The position numbers and the translations under genes were made by a program. This document shows, piece after piece, positions 8,706-47,698 of a DNA stretch of 64,000 nucleotides. The notes beneath the pieces are model-generated. The model saw nothing but the letters and a program-made list of their open reading frames with translations, did not search any database and had not been told where the DNA came from. Source of the DNA: Alphaproteobacteria bacterium. GTDB taxonomy: Bacteria > Pseudomonadota > Alphaproteobacteria > RF32 > CAG-239. The stretch spans positions 24,098 to 88,097 of the forward strand of contig DBFWPL010000002.1 in NCBI GenBank assembly GCA_048463395.1, in the 5' to 3' direction. Positions within the stretch are counted from its first letter, which is position 1, and each line of letters opens with the position of its first letter.

Positions 8706-10010
8706 ATGATGAAAGTTGCAATTATTGGGACGGGATATGTCGGACTTCCGACGGGTGTCGGGCTGGCAGAACTCGGAAACAAAGTTGTCTGTGTTGATAA
8801 AATCGCCGAGAAGATAGATTCCTTAAACAGCGGAAAAATCACAATTTATGAAGACGGAATGGAAGAACTTTTTCAGAAGAATCTGAAAAAAGGCAGTATT
8901 TCGTTTACAACGGATATGGAAACTGCCGTTAAAGATGCTGATTTGGTCATGATTGCGGTGGGGACGCCTCCGCATCCGGAAACCAAAGAAGCCGATTTGC
9001 GGTATATTTATGCGGCGGCTGAAGAGTTGGCTCAATATTTGACAGGATATACCGTTGTTGCGACAAAATCGACAGTTCCGGTCGGAACCGGAGACGAGGT
9101 GGAAGCCATTATCAAGAGAGTTAATCCGAATGCCAATTGTGATGTCGTGTCTTTGCCGGAGTTTTTGCGGGAAGGTTTTGCCATTCATGATTTTTTCAAT
9201 CCGGACAGAATAGTTATCGGTGCCAACACGGCGAAAGCTCAGGAACTCCTTTTGAGTTTGTACAAACCGTTTAAGGGAAAAACAGAGTTTTTGCTGGTCA
9301 ATCGTAAATCTTCGGAAACAATCAAATATGCCTCCAATGCCTTTTTGGCGATGAAGATTCATTATATTAACGAAATGGCGAATTTTTGTGAAAAAGCGGG
9401 TGCCGATATTAATGAAGTGGCGAAAGGTATGGGGTTAGATACGCGTATCGGCAAGAAGTTTTTGAATGCGGGGCCGGGGTATGGCGGTTCATGTTTCCCG
9501 AAAGATACCAACGCTATGGCTCAGATGGGCAAGAAATACGGTGCTCGTCTTAACCTGATTGAAACGACCATTGCCAAAAACGATGAACGCAAGGTTGAAA
9601 TGGGACAGCGGGTTATTGACGCTGTTAAAGACTATAAAGACGGGAAAATCGCCGTTTTGGGGCTGGCGTTCAAAGGCGGTACGGATGACTGCCGCGAATC
9701 TCCGGCAATGGAGATTTTGAACGAGATTTTGCGTCATTCTTCCAATGTCGCGGTTTATGATCCGAAAGCCATGGAAAATGCCCGTAAGCTTATCGGCGAC
9801 AAGGTTGTTTATGCCGCAGATGCTTATGAAGCCTGCAAGTCTGCGGATATTTTGGTTATTCTGACCGAGTGGGAAGAGTTCAAGCAGCTTGATTTGGTTA
9901 AGCTTAAGCAGATTATGCGGCATGCCAGAATTATGGATATGCGGAATATGCTTAGTCCGAAAGATGTGCGGAACAATGGTTTTGTATACAGCTGTATAGG
10001 GATGAAATAA
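8706..10010 (+). CDS. ugd: UDP-glucose 6-dehydrogenase
   Basis: VAIIGTGYVGLPTG Rossmann motif, catalytic GGSCFPKD motif, C-terminal UDP-binding domain. Confidence 0.85.
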   Translation: MMKVAIIGTGYVGLPTGVGLAELGNKVVCVDKIAEKIDSLNSGKITIYEDGMEELFQKNLKKGSISFTTDMETAVKDADLVMIAVGTPPHPETKEADLRYIYAAAEELAQYLTGYTVVATKSTVPVGTGDEVEAIIKRVNPNANCDVVSLPEFLREGFAIHDFFNPDRIVIGANTAKAQELLLSLYKPFKGKTEFLLVNRKSSETIKYASNAFLAMKIHYINEMANFCEKAGADINEVAKGMGLDTRIGKKFLNAGPGYGGSCFPKDTNAMAQMGKKYGARLNLIETTIAKNDERKVEMGQRVIDAVKDYKDGKIAVLGLAFKGGTDDCRESPAMEILNEILRHSSNVAVYDPKAMENARKLIGDKVVYAADAYEACKSADILVILTEWEEFKQLDLVKLKQIMRHARIMDMRNMLSPKDVRNNGFVYSCIGMK

Positions 10011-10982: not shown

Positions 10983-11004
10983 AATACCCGAGGTTTTTTT
11001 TAAG
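10966..11004. terminator. rho-independent terminator (bidirectional) after galE
   Basis: acctcgggtaaaatacccgaggt hairpin followed by T8. Confidence 0.6.
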
Positions 11005-11362
11005 CATTATATGGGTAAGTTTGTTTGATTTCTGCGACTTTTTGGCGGCGGAGTTCCAATAGTTGAGAAATTTCGGCTTCAATATCCGGTGTGGAAATTT
11101 CATCCCGTAAACGGTTTATTTCCAAAGTCAGGCAGTCGGTTTCCATGGCGTAAGCACGTGAGCGGAGAATACGTATTTCTTCATTGCTTAATGTTGGTTT
11201 GGGCGGCAGAAATCCGGATAAATAAAATCTTCCGTCGCCGTTGGTTTCAACTTCCTGTTCCGTAAAGCCTGTGTTTAAGAAATAAATAGTATCAGGGTTT
11301 TCTCCGGCGGCGATACAGACTTCTTTAGTTTGTTGATTGATTATTTTGCTCAGTTTCTTCAT
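11000..11362 (-). CDS. phage tail-fibre assembly chaperone-like protein
   Basis: 120 aa. C-terminal ...LTLEINRLRDEISTPDIEAEISQLLELRRQKVAEIKQTYP resembles Tfa-type tail-fibre assembly proteins. It sits immediately downstream of, and overlapping, a tail-fibre-like gene. Confidence 0.4.
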   Translation of the reverse strand: MKKLSKIINQQTKEVCIAAGENPDTIYFLNTGFTEQEVETNGDGRFYLSGFLPPKPTLSNEEIRILRSRAYAMETDCLTLEINRLRDEISTPDIEAEISQLLELRRQKVAEIKQTYPYNA

Positions 11363-12329
11363 GTTTGCTTCCTTTCAAAGGGAAAAAAGTGTATAAGGGG
11401 TTATAACTGCTTAAGCCGGACCAGCTGATGACATCTCCCGTTCCGACCCAGACATCACGAGTTCTTGTAACGGAAACGCTTGGCATTTCGTCAAAAACAA
11501 TTCGGGTACCGTTGACGGTAACGTTAATTGCGGTTACGATTGCACCGCCCTGAAGGTTAATCATTCCCGGCTCTTGAGCCGTAAACGGGCTGGTTATGGA
11601 ATAACCGCGGGTATAGTCTGGAATGCCTAATTCAACGATGGTTGTTTTGGCTTCGGTTGTTAAATTGGCGGCGTTGTTATCCGCTTTGGCGGCGATTTGT
11701 TCTTCCAATTCGGGAAGAATTGTATCCATGTCTTCTTTGGTGTTGCGGATTTCTTCCAGATAAGTTTGTGTTTGCTGCAGAATTTTTGAATTGGTTTCCG
11801 AAGCTTCAAGAACGACGGAAATGTTTTTTTCCAAGTCGTTTAGTCTGAAAGAAGAGTTTTGCAGTTCTGTTTCATCATCACTCCAGACAATAGCTTTGCC
11901 GGCTTCCGGCATTGGCAGGCTGACGTCCATTTGTGTTGGGGCAGAAGGCGGAAAAGTTACCGTGCGTCCGATAAGGTCTTCAAGCTGCTCCATGCAGGCA
12001 AGCTGATAGTCAAATTCAGAGTTTACTTTGGAGCTCATAAACGGTCCGACTTCTTTGAAGTTGGTAGTTCTTTTAAATGGAATGCTGCGATACAGCGTGA
12101 TAACGGTTCCTTCTGCCGGCGGGGTATCAAAAATAACGGTACCGCCGTTGATGTCCGGAGATGAGCTCATGATAACGGAATAACCGTTTTCCAAGAGTTT
12201 GTTGTCCAGATATATTTTAACATCATCGGGGTTGAAAATCGGAAAATGGAAATAATATTCGGACCGGGTGCCGTCGGCAATAAGGCGTAAACGGGGTTTG
12301 ACGCTGCCGGAATCTTGAGGATTGGACAT
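11325..12329 (-). CDS. T7-type tail fibre-like protein
   Basis: N-terminus ...LIADGTRSEYYFHFPIFNPDDVKIYLDNKLLENGYSVI matches the pattern of the T7 gp17 N-terminal tail-attachment domain (DGSNRDFNIPFEYL...VVVTLIG...TDYRF). A central coiled-coil-like segment and a beta-rich C-terminus follow. GGAGA lies 5 nt before the second ATG (12329); the track start at 12422 is probably too long. Confidence 0.5.
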   Translation of the reverse strand: MSNPQDSGSVKPRLRLIADGTRSEYYFHFPIFNPDDVKIYLDNKLLENGYSVIMSSSPDINGGTVIFDTPPAEGTVITLYRSIPFKRTTNFKEVGPFMSSKVNSEFDYQLACMEQLEDLIGRTVTFPPSAPTQMDVSLPMPEAGKAIVWSDDETELQNSSFRLNDLEKNISVVLEASETNSKILQQTQTYLEEIRNTKEDMDTILPELEEQIAAKADNNAANLTTEAKTTIVELGIPDYTRGYSITSPFTAQEPGMINLQGGAIVTAINVTVNGTRIVFDEMPSVSVTRTRDVWVGTGDVISWSGLSSYNPLYTFFPLKGSKHEETEQNNQSTN

Positions 12330-12509
12330 TTCTTTCTCCATTGTTGTTAAGTTGAACAATCGAGAAGATAAACAAATAATAGTGGCAATTGTTCTTGTAT
12401 AATATTTTTTAGAAAAAGTCAAGGAATAAATTCCTATTTTATACGGTTGACTTTTGAATTATGATGATTACTATCTAATTTAGTTTTTAATTTATGAGGA
12501 GATTTGAAT

Positions 12510-13300: not shown

Positions 13301-14029
13301 TTAAGGGAGTATGCCAACGCAAATGTGTGGAAATTTCATTTGAGATACTGCGGTCATTTGATAGTTATTGACCATGTTGTAGGGCGTTCCTCCCTTGAGC
13401 CAGATAGAAGCTGATTGTGTTCCTCCTCCGAATGTATATCCATCACTACTTATAGAAATTAAGTTTAAATTTTTAACAATTGGTGAGGTGCTGGTTGCAG
13501 TTTTTAAATTAGCTATCATGCTATATTTGTCTTTTAGCAGTTGGGCCTCTTCAAGGCTAGGCAGATGTCCGGTACAGAGATAGTTTGGTGCTGTGTTGAT
13601 GGCGTGGGCAATACTTGCACATTTATATTGACAGAATGTACTGTTATAACTTTCCGGGGTGCCGTTTCCTTCCAGTAGAACTAATTTGGTAGAGGCATTT
13701 ACCACTATACCGATAGCCTGTTTATCGGGTAAAGCTGTTGTCGGTCGGCTCCATGTGCCGTCTTTGTATACGATGTCTCCATCTTGCAGGGGAATGTTTT
13801 GAGCCAAAAATTCATCTCTGCTGAGTGATGTTCCGCAAGATATTTTACTTTTATCAAAAGGACATTTCAATGTTTTTAGGCCGACACATTGTGCTTCAGT
13901 CATTGTGTATCCTAATTCTTCACAAGAAGGAGGAGTGTCACAGGTTTGGGCGGAAGCTGTTGAGGCGGCGAAGGAGAAAGCGAGTATTGAAAGGCTAACT
14001 CCCCATATATTTCTAAAATTATCAGTCAT
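13301..14029 (-). CDS. cysteine-rich secreted protein (hypothetical)
   Basis: Signal peptide MTDNFRNIWGVSLSILAFSFAASTASA, then Cys-rich region with a CxxxGYT motif. Shares motifs with the upstream gene. Confidence 0.5.
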   Translation of the reverse strand: MTDNFRNIWGVSLSILAFSFAASTASAQTCDTPPSCEELGYTMTEAQCVGLKTLKCPFDKSKISCGTSLSRDEFLAQNIPLQDGDIVYKDGTWSRPTTALPDKQAIGIVVNASTKLVLLEGNGTPESYNSTFCQYKCASIAHAINTAPNYLCTGHLPSLEEAQLLKDKYSMIANLKTATSTSPIVKNLNLISISSDGYTFGGGTQSASIWLKGGTPYNMVNNYQMTAVSQMKFPHICVGILP

Positions 14030-14044
14030 AATCTTTCTCCTTGT

Positions 14045-14998
14045 TTATTTAGTTATAGGTTTCATCCAACATTTATACCAAGAGCAGGTATCAATGTCGG
14101 TGTATCCGGTTGCACATCCGGTAATGTAGTATTTGGAAGAGCATTTCTCAAAAGAGCAGGTGTACCCTGTCGGACAAGAGGTATAAGTACCGACATTCGG
14201 GCAGGATTTACATTTGTTGTATTTGGTAACGCCGTTTTCGGTACAGCTTTGTGCACCGGCTTCGTATCCCAAGTCGCATTCAATGAACTCAGCAGAGCAT
14301 GAGCAGCCGTTCTTTGAAGCGTTTACAACATAAGGGTATTCACAAGATTTACAGATATTTTTCGGGTAGAAATATGAAGTTAAATTCTGATTGCTGCGGC
14401 AGTAGTTGTATGCTTCCACGATATTAGAGCGGTAATCCTGTTCAGAGATGTATTCGTTTTCAGCGGAACAAGGGGTTAGAGAGCTATCGGTACATCGGCA
14501 AGCGTAATAAGTACCGGATTTATCGGAACATGTTTCGGTTTGGGCAAGTTTTCCGCAGGTTGAAAGTCTGTTGCTTTCGGTAACGGTATAGTAAGTTGTA
14601 TCGCACAAACAGGCTTTAAAGTATTTATTATCGTGAGGGCAGCTGGTTGTTTCGTCAGGGAAGGAGTTTTGAGGGCATTCCGTACGATTAAAGCCTTCGT
14701 CCCGGCATTGTAGGGAGGTGTCAATATTAGTATCGTTGTCAGAATAGTTAAGACCAAGACCATAGGCGTTTTTATCAGAGTTAACAATAGATCTGACAGC
14801 GGCGAGTTTGACGGTATTATCCGAGTTAAAAGAGGATATAGGCTTCAGCTCCATGGGTGTATGTGTGTGTGGTGTGTGTGTGTTTACCAGAGGGGTACCA
14901 GAGTAAGCCAAAGTCAGATGTTTAGCCTCGGAGACCTGAGGGTTGCCGGAGAGCAAGACGCAGGCAGAGGCCAGTAAAAAGAACTTAGTATCAGTCAT
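14045..14998 (-). CDS. cysteine-rich secreted protein (hypothetical), ~35 Cys
   Basis: Signal peptide MTDTKFFLLASACVLLSGNPQVSEA. HT(P) repeat encoded by an imperfect (GT)n tract. Repeated C-x-GYT motifs (CPTGYTC, GCATGYTD). Confidence 0.5.
   Translation of the reverse strand: MTDTKFFLLASACVLLSGNPQVSEAKHLTLAYSGTPLVNTHTPHTHTPMELKPISSFNSDNTVKLAAVRSIVNSDKNAYGLGLNYSDNDTNIDTSLQCRDEGFNRTECPQNSFPDETTSCPHDNKYFKACLCDTTYYTVTESNRLSTCGKLAQTETCSDKSGTYYACRCTDSSLTPCSAENEYISEQDYRSNIVEAYNYCRSNQNLTSYFYPKNICKSCEYPYVVNASKNGCSCSAEFIECDLGYEAGAQSCTENGVTKYNKCKSCPNVGTYTSCPTGYTCSFEKCSSKYYITGCATGYTDIDTCSWYKCWMKPITK
14856..14884. repeat. imperfect (GT)n/(CA)n dinucleotide tract inside the CDS (encodes THTPHTHTP)
   Basis: ggtgtatgtgtgtgtggtgtgtgtgtgtt as read in the sequence. 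Confidence 0.7.
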
Positions 14999-15053
14999 GG
15001 TATCACCTCATAGTAATTAAGAACTAAAGCCTATATACTATCCATACTAAGTC

Positions 15054-15066
15054 TTTTTTTTTTTTT
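15054..15066. repeat. homopolymeric T13 (A13 on minus) tract in the promoter spacer of the Cys-rich protein operon
   Basis: 13 consecutive T, located 56-68 nt upstream of the start codon at 14998. Flanked by TTGTTGCA (-35-like) and TAGTAT (-10-like) on the minus strand. Confidence 0.8.
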
Positions 15067-15072
15067 GCAACA

Positions 15073-15104
15073 AAAAAGTGCATCTGCCCGCACTTTTAAA
15101 AGGA
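15073..15104. terminator. hairpin terminator (bidirectional)
   Basis: gtgcatctgcccgcac hairpin flanked by A6 and T4. Confidence 0.4.
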
Positions 15105-27863: not shown

Positions 27864-28121
27864 TTAATCAATCAGTTCAATTTGAATTTTCTTTTTGAAG
27901 AATTTGGTAAAACGGGTCAGATAGGCAAGGGCGAAAGTCGTACCGTTTTCAACCTCAATCCAGCGGTCGGACTGAAAGTCAAGAATGTCGCACAGTTCGG
28001 CAACGGAATAATTGTTATCGGTTCGGATTTGTTCAATTTGCCGACCAAGCAAAATGGTTGTTTCCGGATTGCGTTCGGCAAAGTTTGTGTTAAACGGACG
28101 GTTTTTTCTTTTACTCATTTT
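27864..28121 (-). CDS. small HTH (XRE/Cro-type) transcriptional regulator
   Basis: AAGGAG lies 6 nt upstream of the ATG at 28121. LGRQIEQIRTDNNYSVAELCDIL... helix-turn-helix. The track ORF from 28223 includes an untranslated leader. Confidence 0.55.
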   Translation of the reverse strand, partial: KMSKRKNRPFNTNFAERNPETTILLGRQIEQIRTDNNYSVAELCDILDFQSDRWIEVENGTTFALAYLTRFTKFFKKKIQIELID

Positions 28122-45223: not shown

Positions 45224-45298
45224 GCGGGCGTAGCTCAGGGGTAGAGCGCAACCTTGCCAAGGTTGATGTCGAGGGTTCGAATCCCTTCACCCGCTCCA
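45224..45298 (+). tRNA. tRNA-Gly (anticodon GCC)
   Basis: Manual fold: acceptor gcgggcg/cacccgc (one C:A mismatch at 6:67), D-arm gctc-aggggta-gagc, anticodon arm caacc-ttGCCaa-ggttg, T-arm gaggg-ttcgaat-ccctt, encoded CCA. Confidence 0.85.
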
Positions 45299-45330: not shown

Positions 45331-45476
45331 GGAATTGAGGGGGAACGATGAGAACCCGAACAGAGGGTTCGGAGCGGATAGTTGGCGAGCACGATTTTAA
45401 GAAGTGCGAGGTTTACGTCGCGAAAGGGACCCATTGGCAGTGCCGATGGGAATTTACAATCCCTTCACCCGCTCCA
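45331..45476 (+). repeat. tRNA-linked structured element, copy 1
   Basis: Leader hairpin gaaccc-gaacaga-gggttc, then gagggttcg (tRNA-Gly T-stem 5' half plus first 4 nt of T-loop). A ~92-nt core follows: gagcggatagttggcgagcacgattttaagaagtgcgaggtttacgtcgcgaaagggacccattggcagtgccgatgggaatttac. It ends in aatcccttcacccgctcca, identical to tRNA-Gly from T-loop nt 58 through CCA. A near-identical copy of the tRNA terminator (45477-45510) follows. Confidence 0.7.
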
Positions 45477-45630
45477 TTAAAAAAGACCTCCTTTAGGGAG
45501 GTTTTTTTGTAAGGTTAATTCATGCTCTCTTTTGGGGAGTTTTGTTGTATTAGGGGAAGGATGTTCCCTTGATAAATTTGTTTGAGGGATTATTTTTATG
45601 CCATAACCTCTCTAAGCGAAAGTTTTAAGA

Positions 45631-47233: not shown

Positions 47234-47325
47234 TGGAGAGATGGCAGAGTGGTCGAATGCGGTTGACTCGAAATCAATTGTACTCTTTACGGGTACCGGG
47301 AGTTCGAATCTCCCTCTCTCCGCCA
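47234..47325 (+). tRNA. tRNA-Ser (anticodon CGA)
   Basis: Manual fold: acceptor ggagaga/tctctcc, D-arm gca-gagtggtcgaa-tgc, anticodon arm gttga-ctCGAaa-tcaat, long variable arm, T-arm gggag-ttcgaat-ctccc, discriminator G, encoded CCA. Confidence 0.85.
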
Positions 47326-47369: not shown

Positions 47370-47513
47370 TGAGGAAGAGTGGAATTTGAACTCCCGGTGA
47401 GGAGTTCGGAGCAGATAGTTGGCGAGCACGATTTTAAGAAGTGCGAGGCTTACGATGCGAAAGGGCCCCATTGGTTTTGCCAATGGGAATTTACAATCTC
47501 CCTCTCTCCGCCA
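47370..47513 (+). repeat. tRNA-linked structured element, copy 2
   Basis: Leader hairpin gaactcc-cggtga-ggagttc, then ggagttcg (tRNA-Ser T-stem 5' half plus ttcg). Core is ~90% identical to copy 1 (gagcagatagttggcgagcacgattttaagaagtgcgaggcttacgatgcgaaagggccccattggttttgccaatgggaatttac). It ends in aatctccctctctccgcca, identical to tRNA-Ser from T-loop nt 58 through CCA. A terminator-like hairpin (47514-47550) follows. Confidence 0.7.
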
Positions 47514-47698
47514 TAACAAAAGCCACCTGAAAAGGTGGCTTTTGTTATGGCGGAGGACTGCTCAGCTTCGGATATATCCTTGCTTTGCAGAGGGAGACAA
47601 GTTTTTCTAAACTCACTTAACAGCTCTTGCTGTTTCGTTTGTTAATAAAAACTTTGTGATACGATAAAAAAAGATGACGTTAAGTCATCTTTTTTATC

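Follow-up and report, generated by a model that had tools for sequence, protein, structure and literature searches.

The stretch considered here (the window) comprises 64,000 nucleotides (nt) from an Alphaproteobacteria bacterium (assembly GCA_048463395.1, contig DBFWPL010000002.1). On its reverse strand lies a small cassette, made of a phage-type tail-fibre gene, an accessory gene that overlaps the 3′ end of the fibre gene, and a promoter-like control region. The fibre gene (11325..12329, −) encodes 334 amino acids (aa). Its open reading frame (ORF) extends over 11325–12422 (−), with the true start at the ATG at 12329, just preceded by GGAGAAAG, and the stop at 11325–11327. The protein begins with MSNPQDSG and carries the string DGTRSEYYFHFPIFNPDDVKIYLDNKLLENGYSVI at residues 19–53. 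The accessory gene (11000..11362, −), recognized by the ORF call, a PHROG match, and a structural model, encodes 120 aa and overlaps the fibre gene by 38 nt; the sequence-only reading of this DNA had noted an overlapping 120-aa gene. Both genes are called identically on an independent assembly. Because the same calls recur on other assemblies, with 45 homologs and a low ratio of nonsynonymous to synonymous substitution rates (dN/dS), the two ORFs are real genes and not chance ORFs.

Three parts can be distinguished in the fibre. Residues 1–162 (11844..12329, −) form a tail-attachment domain of the T7 gp17 type, which is the most conserved part of the family. Residues 16–114 match PHROG tail and tail-fibre families (E 3e-11 to 3e-9), and a 28-member family profile compared with the PDB retrieves the N-terminal particle-binding domain of the Dpo31/Dpo36 tailspikes (E 7e-18), and also LME-1 orf22. 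No Pfam family, PF03906 (Phage_T7_tail) included, matches the fibre of the window; among 28 relatives, 11 match PF03906 in the right register, the best with 25.0 bits against a cut-off of 25.2. In the AlphaFold model (mean pLDDT 71.5), the N-terminal part consists of a beta-sandwich (13–81), a helix (99–119), and a hairpin (145–162). With Foldseek, it matches fibre chains of solved podovirus tails at a probability of 1.00 (among them LME-1, Carin-1, cyanophage A4, Kp7/Kp9, P-SCSP1u, HRP29, PhiM1, and T7 gp17, the latter as 7EY9, 7EY7, and 7BOZ). Residues 163–234 (11628..11843, −) form a helix of 60–70 residues (163–222/234 in the model), presumably a trimeric coiled-coil shaft, which the alignment shows to be variable between clades. 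Residues 235–334 (11328..11627, −) form a beta-sandwich tip with strands between 255 and 318; it is the presumed receptor-binding domain, and other clades carry unrelated tips. Foldseek gives for it weak matches of the C1q/cerebellin type and of the carbohydrate-binding module (CBM) type. The gp17-like attachment domain, the coiled coil, and the beta-rich C terminus that had been read from the sequence are therefore all present, the first borne out by PHROG, the PDB profile, and AlphaFold/Foldseek.

Short, sub-threshold Pfam matches to DUF2460 occur in 12 relatives (P0013, P0032, and 10 others), over about 44 residues (about 34–79). They probably reflect a common beta-hairpin motif and not homology, and nothing is built on them. 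DUF2460 is probably the family of ORFg12 of RcGTA, the gene transfer agent (GTA) of Rhodobacter capsulatus. Homology to the RcGTA fibre was considered and rejected: there is no DUF2793 match, and the N terminus is a beta-sandwich where the RcGTA fibre is a helical rod.

The cassette lies in ordinary chromosome. The window encodes GroES/GroEL, HtpG, TypA, LeuS, LptE, DXP synthase, and two tRNAs. Left of TypA comes a series of genes for sugars and surface glycans, with rmlABCD, GT11 and GT4 glycosyltransferases, MBOAT/AlgX, nagA/nagB, a UDP-glucose dehydrogenase, and an epimerase. Families of capsid, portal, terminase, tail-tube, and integrase proteins are absent from the Pfam lists that cover about 1.3–64 kb of the window (a few small genes there have no match). 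The 64 kb also contain no adaptor, nozzle, or head genes, and phage structural families are absent from the 3.5 kb past the right end, read on a 100%-identical contig until that contig ends. The description of a stand-alone fibre set among surface-polysaccharide genes, with no capsid, tail-tube, terminase, or integrase nearby, holds over this whole range, and no other phage gene was found in the 64 kb.

The homology search yields 45 protein clusters related to the fibre, none of them named. In the genome collection, the family occupies 33 species-level loci, all in metagenome-assembled genomes (MAGs) of uncultured Alphaproteobacteria from gut or rumen, including Ca. Scatocola and “Azospirillum sp.” The record of one locus (L034) is titled “uncultured Lactobacillales bacterium,” yet its fibre and neighbors cluster with alphaproteobacterial loci, and the title is probably a binning or labeling error. 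In all loci, ORFs were called and clustered, and flanking genes were checked by Pfam, not every flanking ORF being searched by profile. Among the Pfam-checked flanking genes of the 33 related loci, there are no phage structural genes; all checked flanks are cellular.

In 27 of 34 loci, the small gene comes after the fibre, and it covaries with the tip. The sequence-only reading had seen in it the C-terminal signature of Tfa-type chaperones. Neither profile nor fold upholds this identity: Caudo_TAP (PF02413) gives no Pfam match for the protein of the window or for six diverse relatives, the “tail fibre assembly” PHROG does not match the protein of the window, and its model has no fold match in the PDB (best E 0.26). 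Profile searches and structure prediction of the two proteins had been proposed as checks, and they uphold the fibre, with its gp17-type fold, but not the chaperone family. The small protein does match PHROG 2432 (E 1e-5); in its relatives, a C-terminal motif of the form EYP...QLD...KYPK gives matches to PHROGs 9114, 1787, and 2687. None of these four families has a known function. The AlphaFold model (mean pLDDT 82) has a small N-terminal sheet and a confident C-terminal unit of three helices. In phages, homologs with the motif lie four genes downstream from the annotated tail fibre of pelagiphage HTVC131P (Autographiviridae), right after a 403-aa protein; four genes past the putative tail fibre of HTVC010P; and, in cyanophage S-T4, behind a Hep_Hag protein and two proteins of ~384 aa. 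In Methylophilales phage MEP301, the small protein occurs together with a head protein of the phrog_3437 type. Because no Tfa profile or fold fits and the phage homologs lie near fibre-like genes, we regard the small gene as an accessory gene of fibre regions, from a family other than Tfa. Given its position and covariation with the tip, the product is presumed to be a fibre-specific assembly, chaperone, or cap factor.

A third gene follows the fibre in 14 loci, mostly between the fibre and the small gene, and encodes a glycine-rich protein of 175–219 aa (for example, L007 10960–11610, L002 10974–11555, and L023 11081–11692); the window is without one. The protein matches weakly a “tail fiber assembly” PHROG (E 1e-5) and may be a distal adhesin.

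Nearly all cassettes are preceded by one arrangement, TAGGAA-N5-6-TCC|TTGAC-N17-(TG)nTAnnnT, in which a palindrome abuts the −35 element. A KTNTRTC motif, as a rule GTGTATC, lies ~13–15 nt past the predicted start, within hairpins that vary. The leader of most loci then contains one or two G+C-rich hairpins with U-runs ahead of the ribosome-binding site. A promoter is recognizable in 33 loci; the palindrome is present in 28 of them, the motif at +13 to +15 in 22, and at least one leader terminator in 29. In L002, the scan called independently a terminator at 9950–9970, between the promoter and the start codon (region 9863–9970). In the window, the palindrome AGGAATTTATTCCT, a presumed operator (12422..12435, −), abuts the −35 and is unique at up to three mismatches. 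The promoter-like elements, inferred from sequence (12394..12422, −), are TTGACT at 12417–12422 and TACAAG at 12394–12399, with a 17-nt spacer, and match positionally the TTGAC-N17-(TG)nTATAAT of related loci. The conserved early-transcribed block GCCACTATTATTTGTTTATC (12367..12386, −) contains the KTNTRTC motif, which falls near +13 relative to the predicted start. An AT-rich hairpin (12340–12360) and GGAGAAAG (12332–12339) then precede the ATG (12327..12360, −), with no G+C-rich leader terminator. The clade of the window keeps the promoter, the palindrome, and the motif (12367–12435). The combination of palindrome and promoter occurs once per locus and once in the whole 64-kb window (12418–12435).

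The leader terminators cannot be those of upstream genes, because the upstream genes are divergent. Fibre expression in most lineages is therefore predicted to need read-through. The leader has no match in Rfam. A cis-acting antiterminator of the riboswitch kind was also considered and set aside, no alternative pairing being visible by eye in the predicted folds, for which no dedicated search was made.

The control region has counterparts in podoviruses. A profile search with the N-domain returned 17 proteins, mostly short, among them P0053, a distant member of the family (~30% identity) from another Alphaproteobacteria MAG, which lies inside a podovirus structural cluster (L211). Besides the fibre, the cluster encodes TerL, an M23 peptidase, a major head protein (phrog_3437, E 8e-71), and a tail protein like tubular A (phrog_394, E 2e-50; PF17212). 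Its head gene has, ~650 nt upstream, a promoter (TTGACT-N17-TATAGT) together with a GGGGCTATTGTGTCC element and a pair of U-tailed hairpins. Heads of the phrog_3437 type are abundant in IMG/VR (at least 596 confirmed matches, on contigs up to ~35 kb), and named relatives are found in pelagiphage Hodr (50%), in HTVC010P-like pelagiphages, in ~32-kb Vibrio podophages, and in a human-faecal fragment (59%). In 11 of the 44 IMG/VR contigs examined, TTGACA-N3-TAGGAAT-N4-ATTCCTATATT lies 190–440 nt upstream of the head gene. The palindrome is the same as in the cassettes, but it is placed between the −35 and the −10, as it is also in cassettes of type D (L022/L023). After the promoter comes ATCAACACCAC-N3-TGTATCT, or a close variant, with the early-transcribed motif common to the cassettes; the block is also present in cassettes of type A2 (ATCACTTGCTATAAGTGTATCT). 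The phage leaders are longer, with clear terminators not in all. Seven of the 11 contigs encode fibres, of 567–682 aa or cut by the contig end, with N-domains that match the cassette profile (E 1e-33 to 1e-36) and are 33–49% identical to those of the cassettes; no other viral match found is closer. When the phage promoters were made into an nhmmer profile and run against 650 kb of bacterial loci, the top ten matches all fell on fibre-cassette promoters. Within the same head family, Hodr and the human-faecal fragment have no promoter of this type ahead of the head gene. No BLAST cluster is common to the bacterial loci and the first six viral loci.

A gene divergent from the head promoter is present in several of these phages (L239 5580–5969, L232 2378–2839, L216 3603–4058, and L230 4803–5204, all on the minus strand). 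Its product of ~130–150 aa contains, by eye, the RxxxR and (D/N)xSxxG motifs typical of PilZ domains that bind cyclic di-GMP. It has no homolog in the bacterial loci.

The chromosomal position of the cassette is not constant. There are at least four contexts, mostly adjoining sugar or glycan genes. In context A, that of the window, the cassette stands between a SIMPL gene and an epimerase followed by a UDP-glucose dehydrogenase. In context B, MscS, Asd, and DUF1796 genes precede it, and lipoproteins, DivIC, an M23 peptidase, bactofilin, and SmpB follow. In context C, it is followed by GT2, GT8, DegT, UDP-galactopyranose mutase, and acetyltransferases, and in context D by transferases of the PMT_2 type and GT2. 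Upstream neighbors are cellular genes (peptidases, RecX, an amylase, and an autotransporter among them) and one resolvase. The latter (L026 8308–8904, +) is a serine recombinase (Resolvase and HTH_7) just upstream of the cassette, in that genome alone, and recalls the Gin/Cin/Pin invertases that switch fibre tips.

Within a few genes of the cassette, 22 of 34 loci have recognized genes for sugars or glycans, an association that is suggestive only, because the loci are not independent. This proximity, with a small beta-sandwich tip that has weak lectin- and CBM-like fold matches, would suit a fibre recruited as a cellular lectin or adhesin, with a host function tied to the neighboring glycan genes (binding of the cell's own polysaccharide, for example) and no contact with any particle. 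Against this, the sequence shows neither a signal peptide nor an anchor. The best conserved part of the protein is the one that docks on phage tails, a pattern difficult to account for if it has no tail-like partner, and its promoter is like that of a phage structural operon. We consider a purely cellular lectin improbable. The conservation of the docking domain and the likeness to the phage head-operon promoter favor a fibre that works with a particle system over a host-surface adhesin.

The cassettes are functional genes inherited with the chromosome, constrained at the docking end and swapped at the binding end. Compared with L005 and L006, dN/dS is 0.11 for the fibre (0.10 for the N-domain, 0.06–0.21 for the tip) and 0.07–0.18 for the small gene, and dS of the cassette is 0.65–1.0, equal to that of the flanking SIMPL, epimerase, and dehydrogenase genes. 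A dS like that of the flanks and a dN/dS of ~0.1 indicate a long history of vertical descent in which the protein itself was under selection. From the window to the next clade of the same synteny, the N-domains are 54–61% identical and the flanking proteins 62–80%, and the tip and the small gene have no real similarity. Throughout the alignment of the family, the N-domain is conserved, and the shaft, the tip, and the accessory genes are swapped between clades. In a bootstrapped neighbor-joining (NJ) tree, each synteny group is a clade at 100%, and contexts A and B join at 98.5%.

A remnant of a prophage or tailocin was one of three alternatives in the sequence-only reading. In favor of an inert prophage remnant that decay has yet to reach, the pair is of phage origin and stands alone, with no further phage gene around it. 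Such a remnant is nevertheless very improbable, with ORFs intact in 33 species-level genomes and several chromosomal contexts, a dN/dS of ~0.1 at a dS of 0.65–1.0, and conserved promoter, motif, and terminators. Another of the three, a domesticated fibre, fares better, but for a particle and not for the host-surface binding then suggested. The last, an exchange cassette, stays in play, because tips and partner genes are swapped between clades.

A related rival reading makes the cassette a selfish or commensal module with no direct gain for the host, a reservoir that persists because infecting podoviruses recombine with it through the conserved N-domain and promoter and so gain new tips. Modules of the stf/tfa type in cryptic prophages of E. 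coli serve as such recombination reservoirs. A conserved 5′ part (promoter and N-domain) and a swapped 3′ part (tip, accessory gene, glycine-rich gene) give the pattern of modular fibre exchange, and the promoter is like that of phages. The identity of the N-domain to that of the closest phages found (33–49%) is low for homologous recombination, however. A dS equal to that of the flanks and a dN/dS of ~0.1 over the whole gene, tip included, also speak against it, as does the lack of flanking direct or inverted repeats around the cassette or of a recombinase, save for the resolvase of L026. We therefore hold a reservoir to be unlikely.

The same promoter could serve defense. The late regulator of an infecting podovirus would induce the host fibre, the N-domain of which would compete for the six docking sites of the particle, so that wrongly fibred progeny would infect kin poorly. 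A promoter that resembles a phage late promoter, leader terminators that would hold the gene silent until infection, a docking domain that is the conserved part, and the lack of partner particle genes nearby are all consistent with an anti-phage decoy of this kind. Such a decoy needs no functional tip, chaperone, or glycine-rich adhesin, yet these are kept, covary, and are under purifying selection (dN/dS of 0.06–0.21 for the tip). The Pfam-checked neighbors also contain no recognizable defense domain, neither PADLOC nor any other defense-system search having been made. A decoy seems to us quite unlikely.

The reading we favor, with roughly even confidence, is that of a domesticated, host-resident cassette that provides in trans the receptor-binding protein of a podovirus-type particle. 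It would have been captured from a small podovirus with a head of the HTVC010P/“Hodr”-like type. Its expression would be off or attenuated until a trans-acting factor engages the palindrome, the early-transcribed element, or both; terminator read-through would be another point at which this regulator may act. That factor could come from a resident domesticated podovirus-like element (of the GTA or tailocin kind) or from an infecting phage of the same family. The fibre trimer, folded with the help of the small protein, would then dock by its N-domain on the adaptor/nozzle of the particle, which would gain a receptor specificity set by the host chromosome, probably for a surface glycan. Targeting of surface glycans would account for the frequent position of the cassette beside sugar and glycan genes.

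Several known systems share parts of this organization. The T7 gp17-type fibres and tailspikes (PF03906; T7 7EY9/7BOZ, LME-1 9EFK, Carin-1 8CK1, Dpo31/Dpo36) have the same N-terminal attachment fold, a helical shaft, and a separate tip. The cassette, unlike them, stands alone in a bacterial chromosome, with no genes for an adaptor (gp11), nozzle (gp12), head, or terminase nearby; adaptor and nozzle genes do accompany the fibre in the distant relatives L211 and the IMG/VR contigs. In cryptic lambdoid prophages of E. coli, stf and tfa likewise form a module of a fibre gene and a small assembly gene, overlapping or adjoining, that survives where the chromosome has no complete phage. The small gene of the cassette is not Tfa/Caudo_TAP, however, and, whereas stf/tfa is a strain-specific relic, the cassette has a regulatory region of its own and is conserved in many species.

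In lambdoid late control, the order is PR′-qut-tR′, with the antiterminator Q. Most cassettes resemble such a late operon in having a near-consensus promoter, a conserved element within the first ~25 transcribed bases, and then one or more terminators before the structural genes. The palindrome is unlike the Q-binding element, though, and the clade of the window is without a terminator; the mechanism is inferred from this anatomy only. No Q-like antiterminator gene is recognized in the Pfam lists covering the window.

The fibre loci of RcGTA are a functional precedent: rcc00171 and rcc01079/rcc01080 lie off the structural cluster, both adjoin polysaccharide genes, and these off-cluster fibre genes evolve faster than the core (PMC5026251). 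The cassettes are likewise alphaproteobacterial fibre genes away from a structural cluster and often beside polysaccharide genes. The proteins are not homologous, though, and the cassette, with its podovirus-type beta-sandwich docking domain, is known here without any GTA cluster.

A number of points weigh against a particle-borne fibre controlled in this way. The partner particle was not found, with no head, portal, adaptor, nozzle, or terminase in the window or in the examined flanks of the 33 loci, and no trans-acting factor was identified. We also know of no podovirus-type GTA or tailocin. The likeness of the promoters is that of a short motif, for which single nhmmer E-values are 0.08–4 and only the joint pattern is persuasive. 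In IMG/VR, the exact pattern of palindrome plus −35 gives three chance matches and no matching promoter, and two variants of the early-transcribed motif give 36 intragenic matches and 0 matches; in metagenomes, the same kind of pattern gives at least 120 matches, with the cassette leader in none among the matches listed. The clade of the window has only a weak AT hairpin in place of a leader terminator, and any control there would be at initiation only. A recognized sugar gene nearby is missing in 12 of 34 loci. Lastly, the NJ tree groups the bacterial sequences as one clade, but with a bootstrap of 18%, so that a single capture is not established.

Some other features of the window deserve mention. 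A 230-kb contig from another sample is 99.7–100% identical to positions 27874–64000 (from just after rmlB, next to typA) and continues past ~27874 with different genes (MurJ, DUF2333, NifU, and others). Either the left 28 kb, with the glycan genes and the cassette, are variable between strains in their linkage, or this is an assembly junction. Short-read contigs also break at ~27938 and at 13970–15087. Just beyond the SIMPL gene that adjoins the cassette lies a pair of genes for cysteine-rich proteins with signal-peptide-like N termini (13301–14029, −, and 14045–14998, −); the member covered by the Pfam list has no match. Two direct repeats of 140 nt (45367–45506 and 47404–47543; 79% identical) each follow a tRNA gene by ~70–80 nt (tRNA-Gly 45224–45298; tRNA-Ser 47235–47325). 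Between them are ~2 kb with a GtrA-like and a nitroreductase gene, where a related contig has an indel of ~230 nt.

We class the cassette among the dispersed fibre loci of phage-derived systems; its control region is phage-like and unexpectedly well conserved. What is new here is the recurrent pair of fibre and small gene with its own promoter, palindrome, and motif, the swapping of tips, and the likeness to podovirus head promoters. More tentatively, and with more doubt than confidence, this lineage could maintain a particle of podovirus type that has been domesticated (a GTA or tailocin with a morphotype not yet described), or systematically re-arm infecting podoviruses, by means of a chromosomal fibre next to glycan genes and under a phage late-promoter/antitermination switch. 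The bacterium, and not the phage, would then set the target, and targeting would be tied to the cell's own glycan genes. The idea of a “multilocus GTA genome” would reach beyond siphovirus-type GTAs, or else a host strategy that redirects infecting phages would be at hand. The lineage is abundant in the gut and uncultured, with almost no known phage biology, and the palindrome, the early-transcribed motif, and the leader terminators provide a sequence handle for finding the rest of the system.

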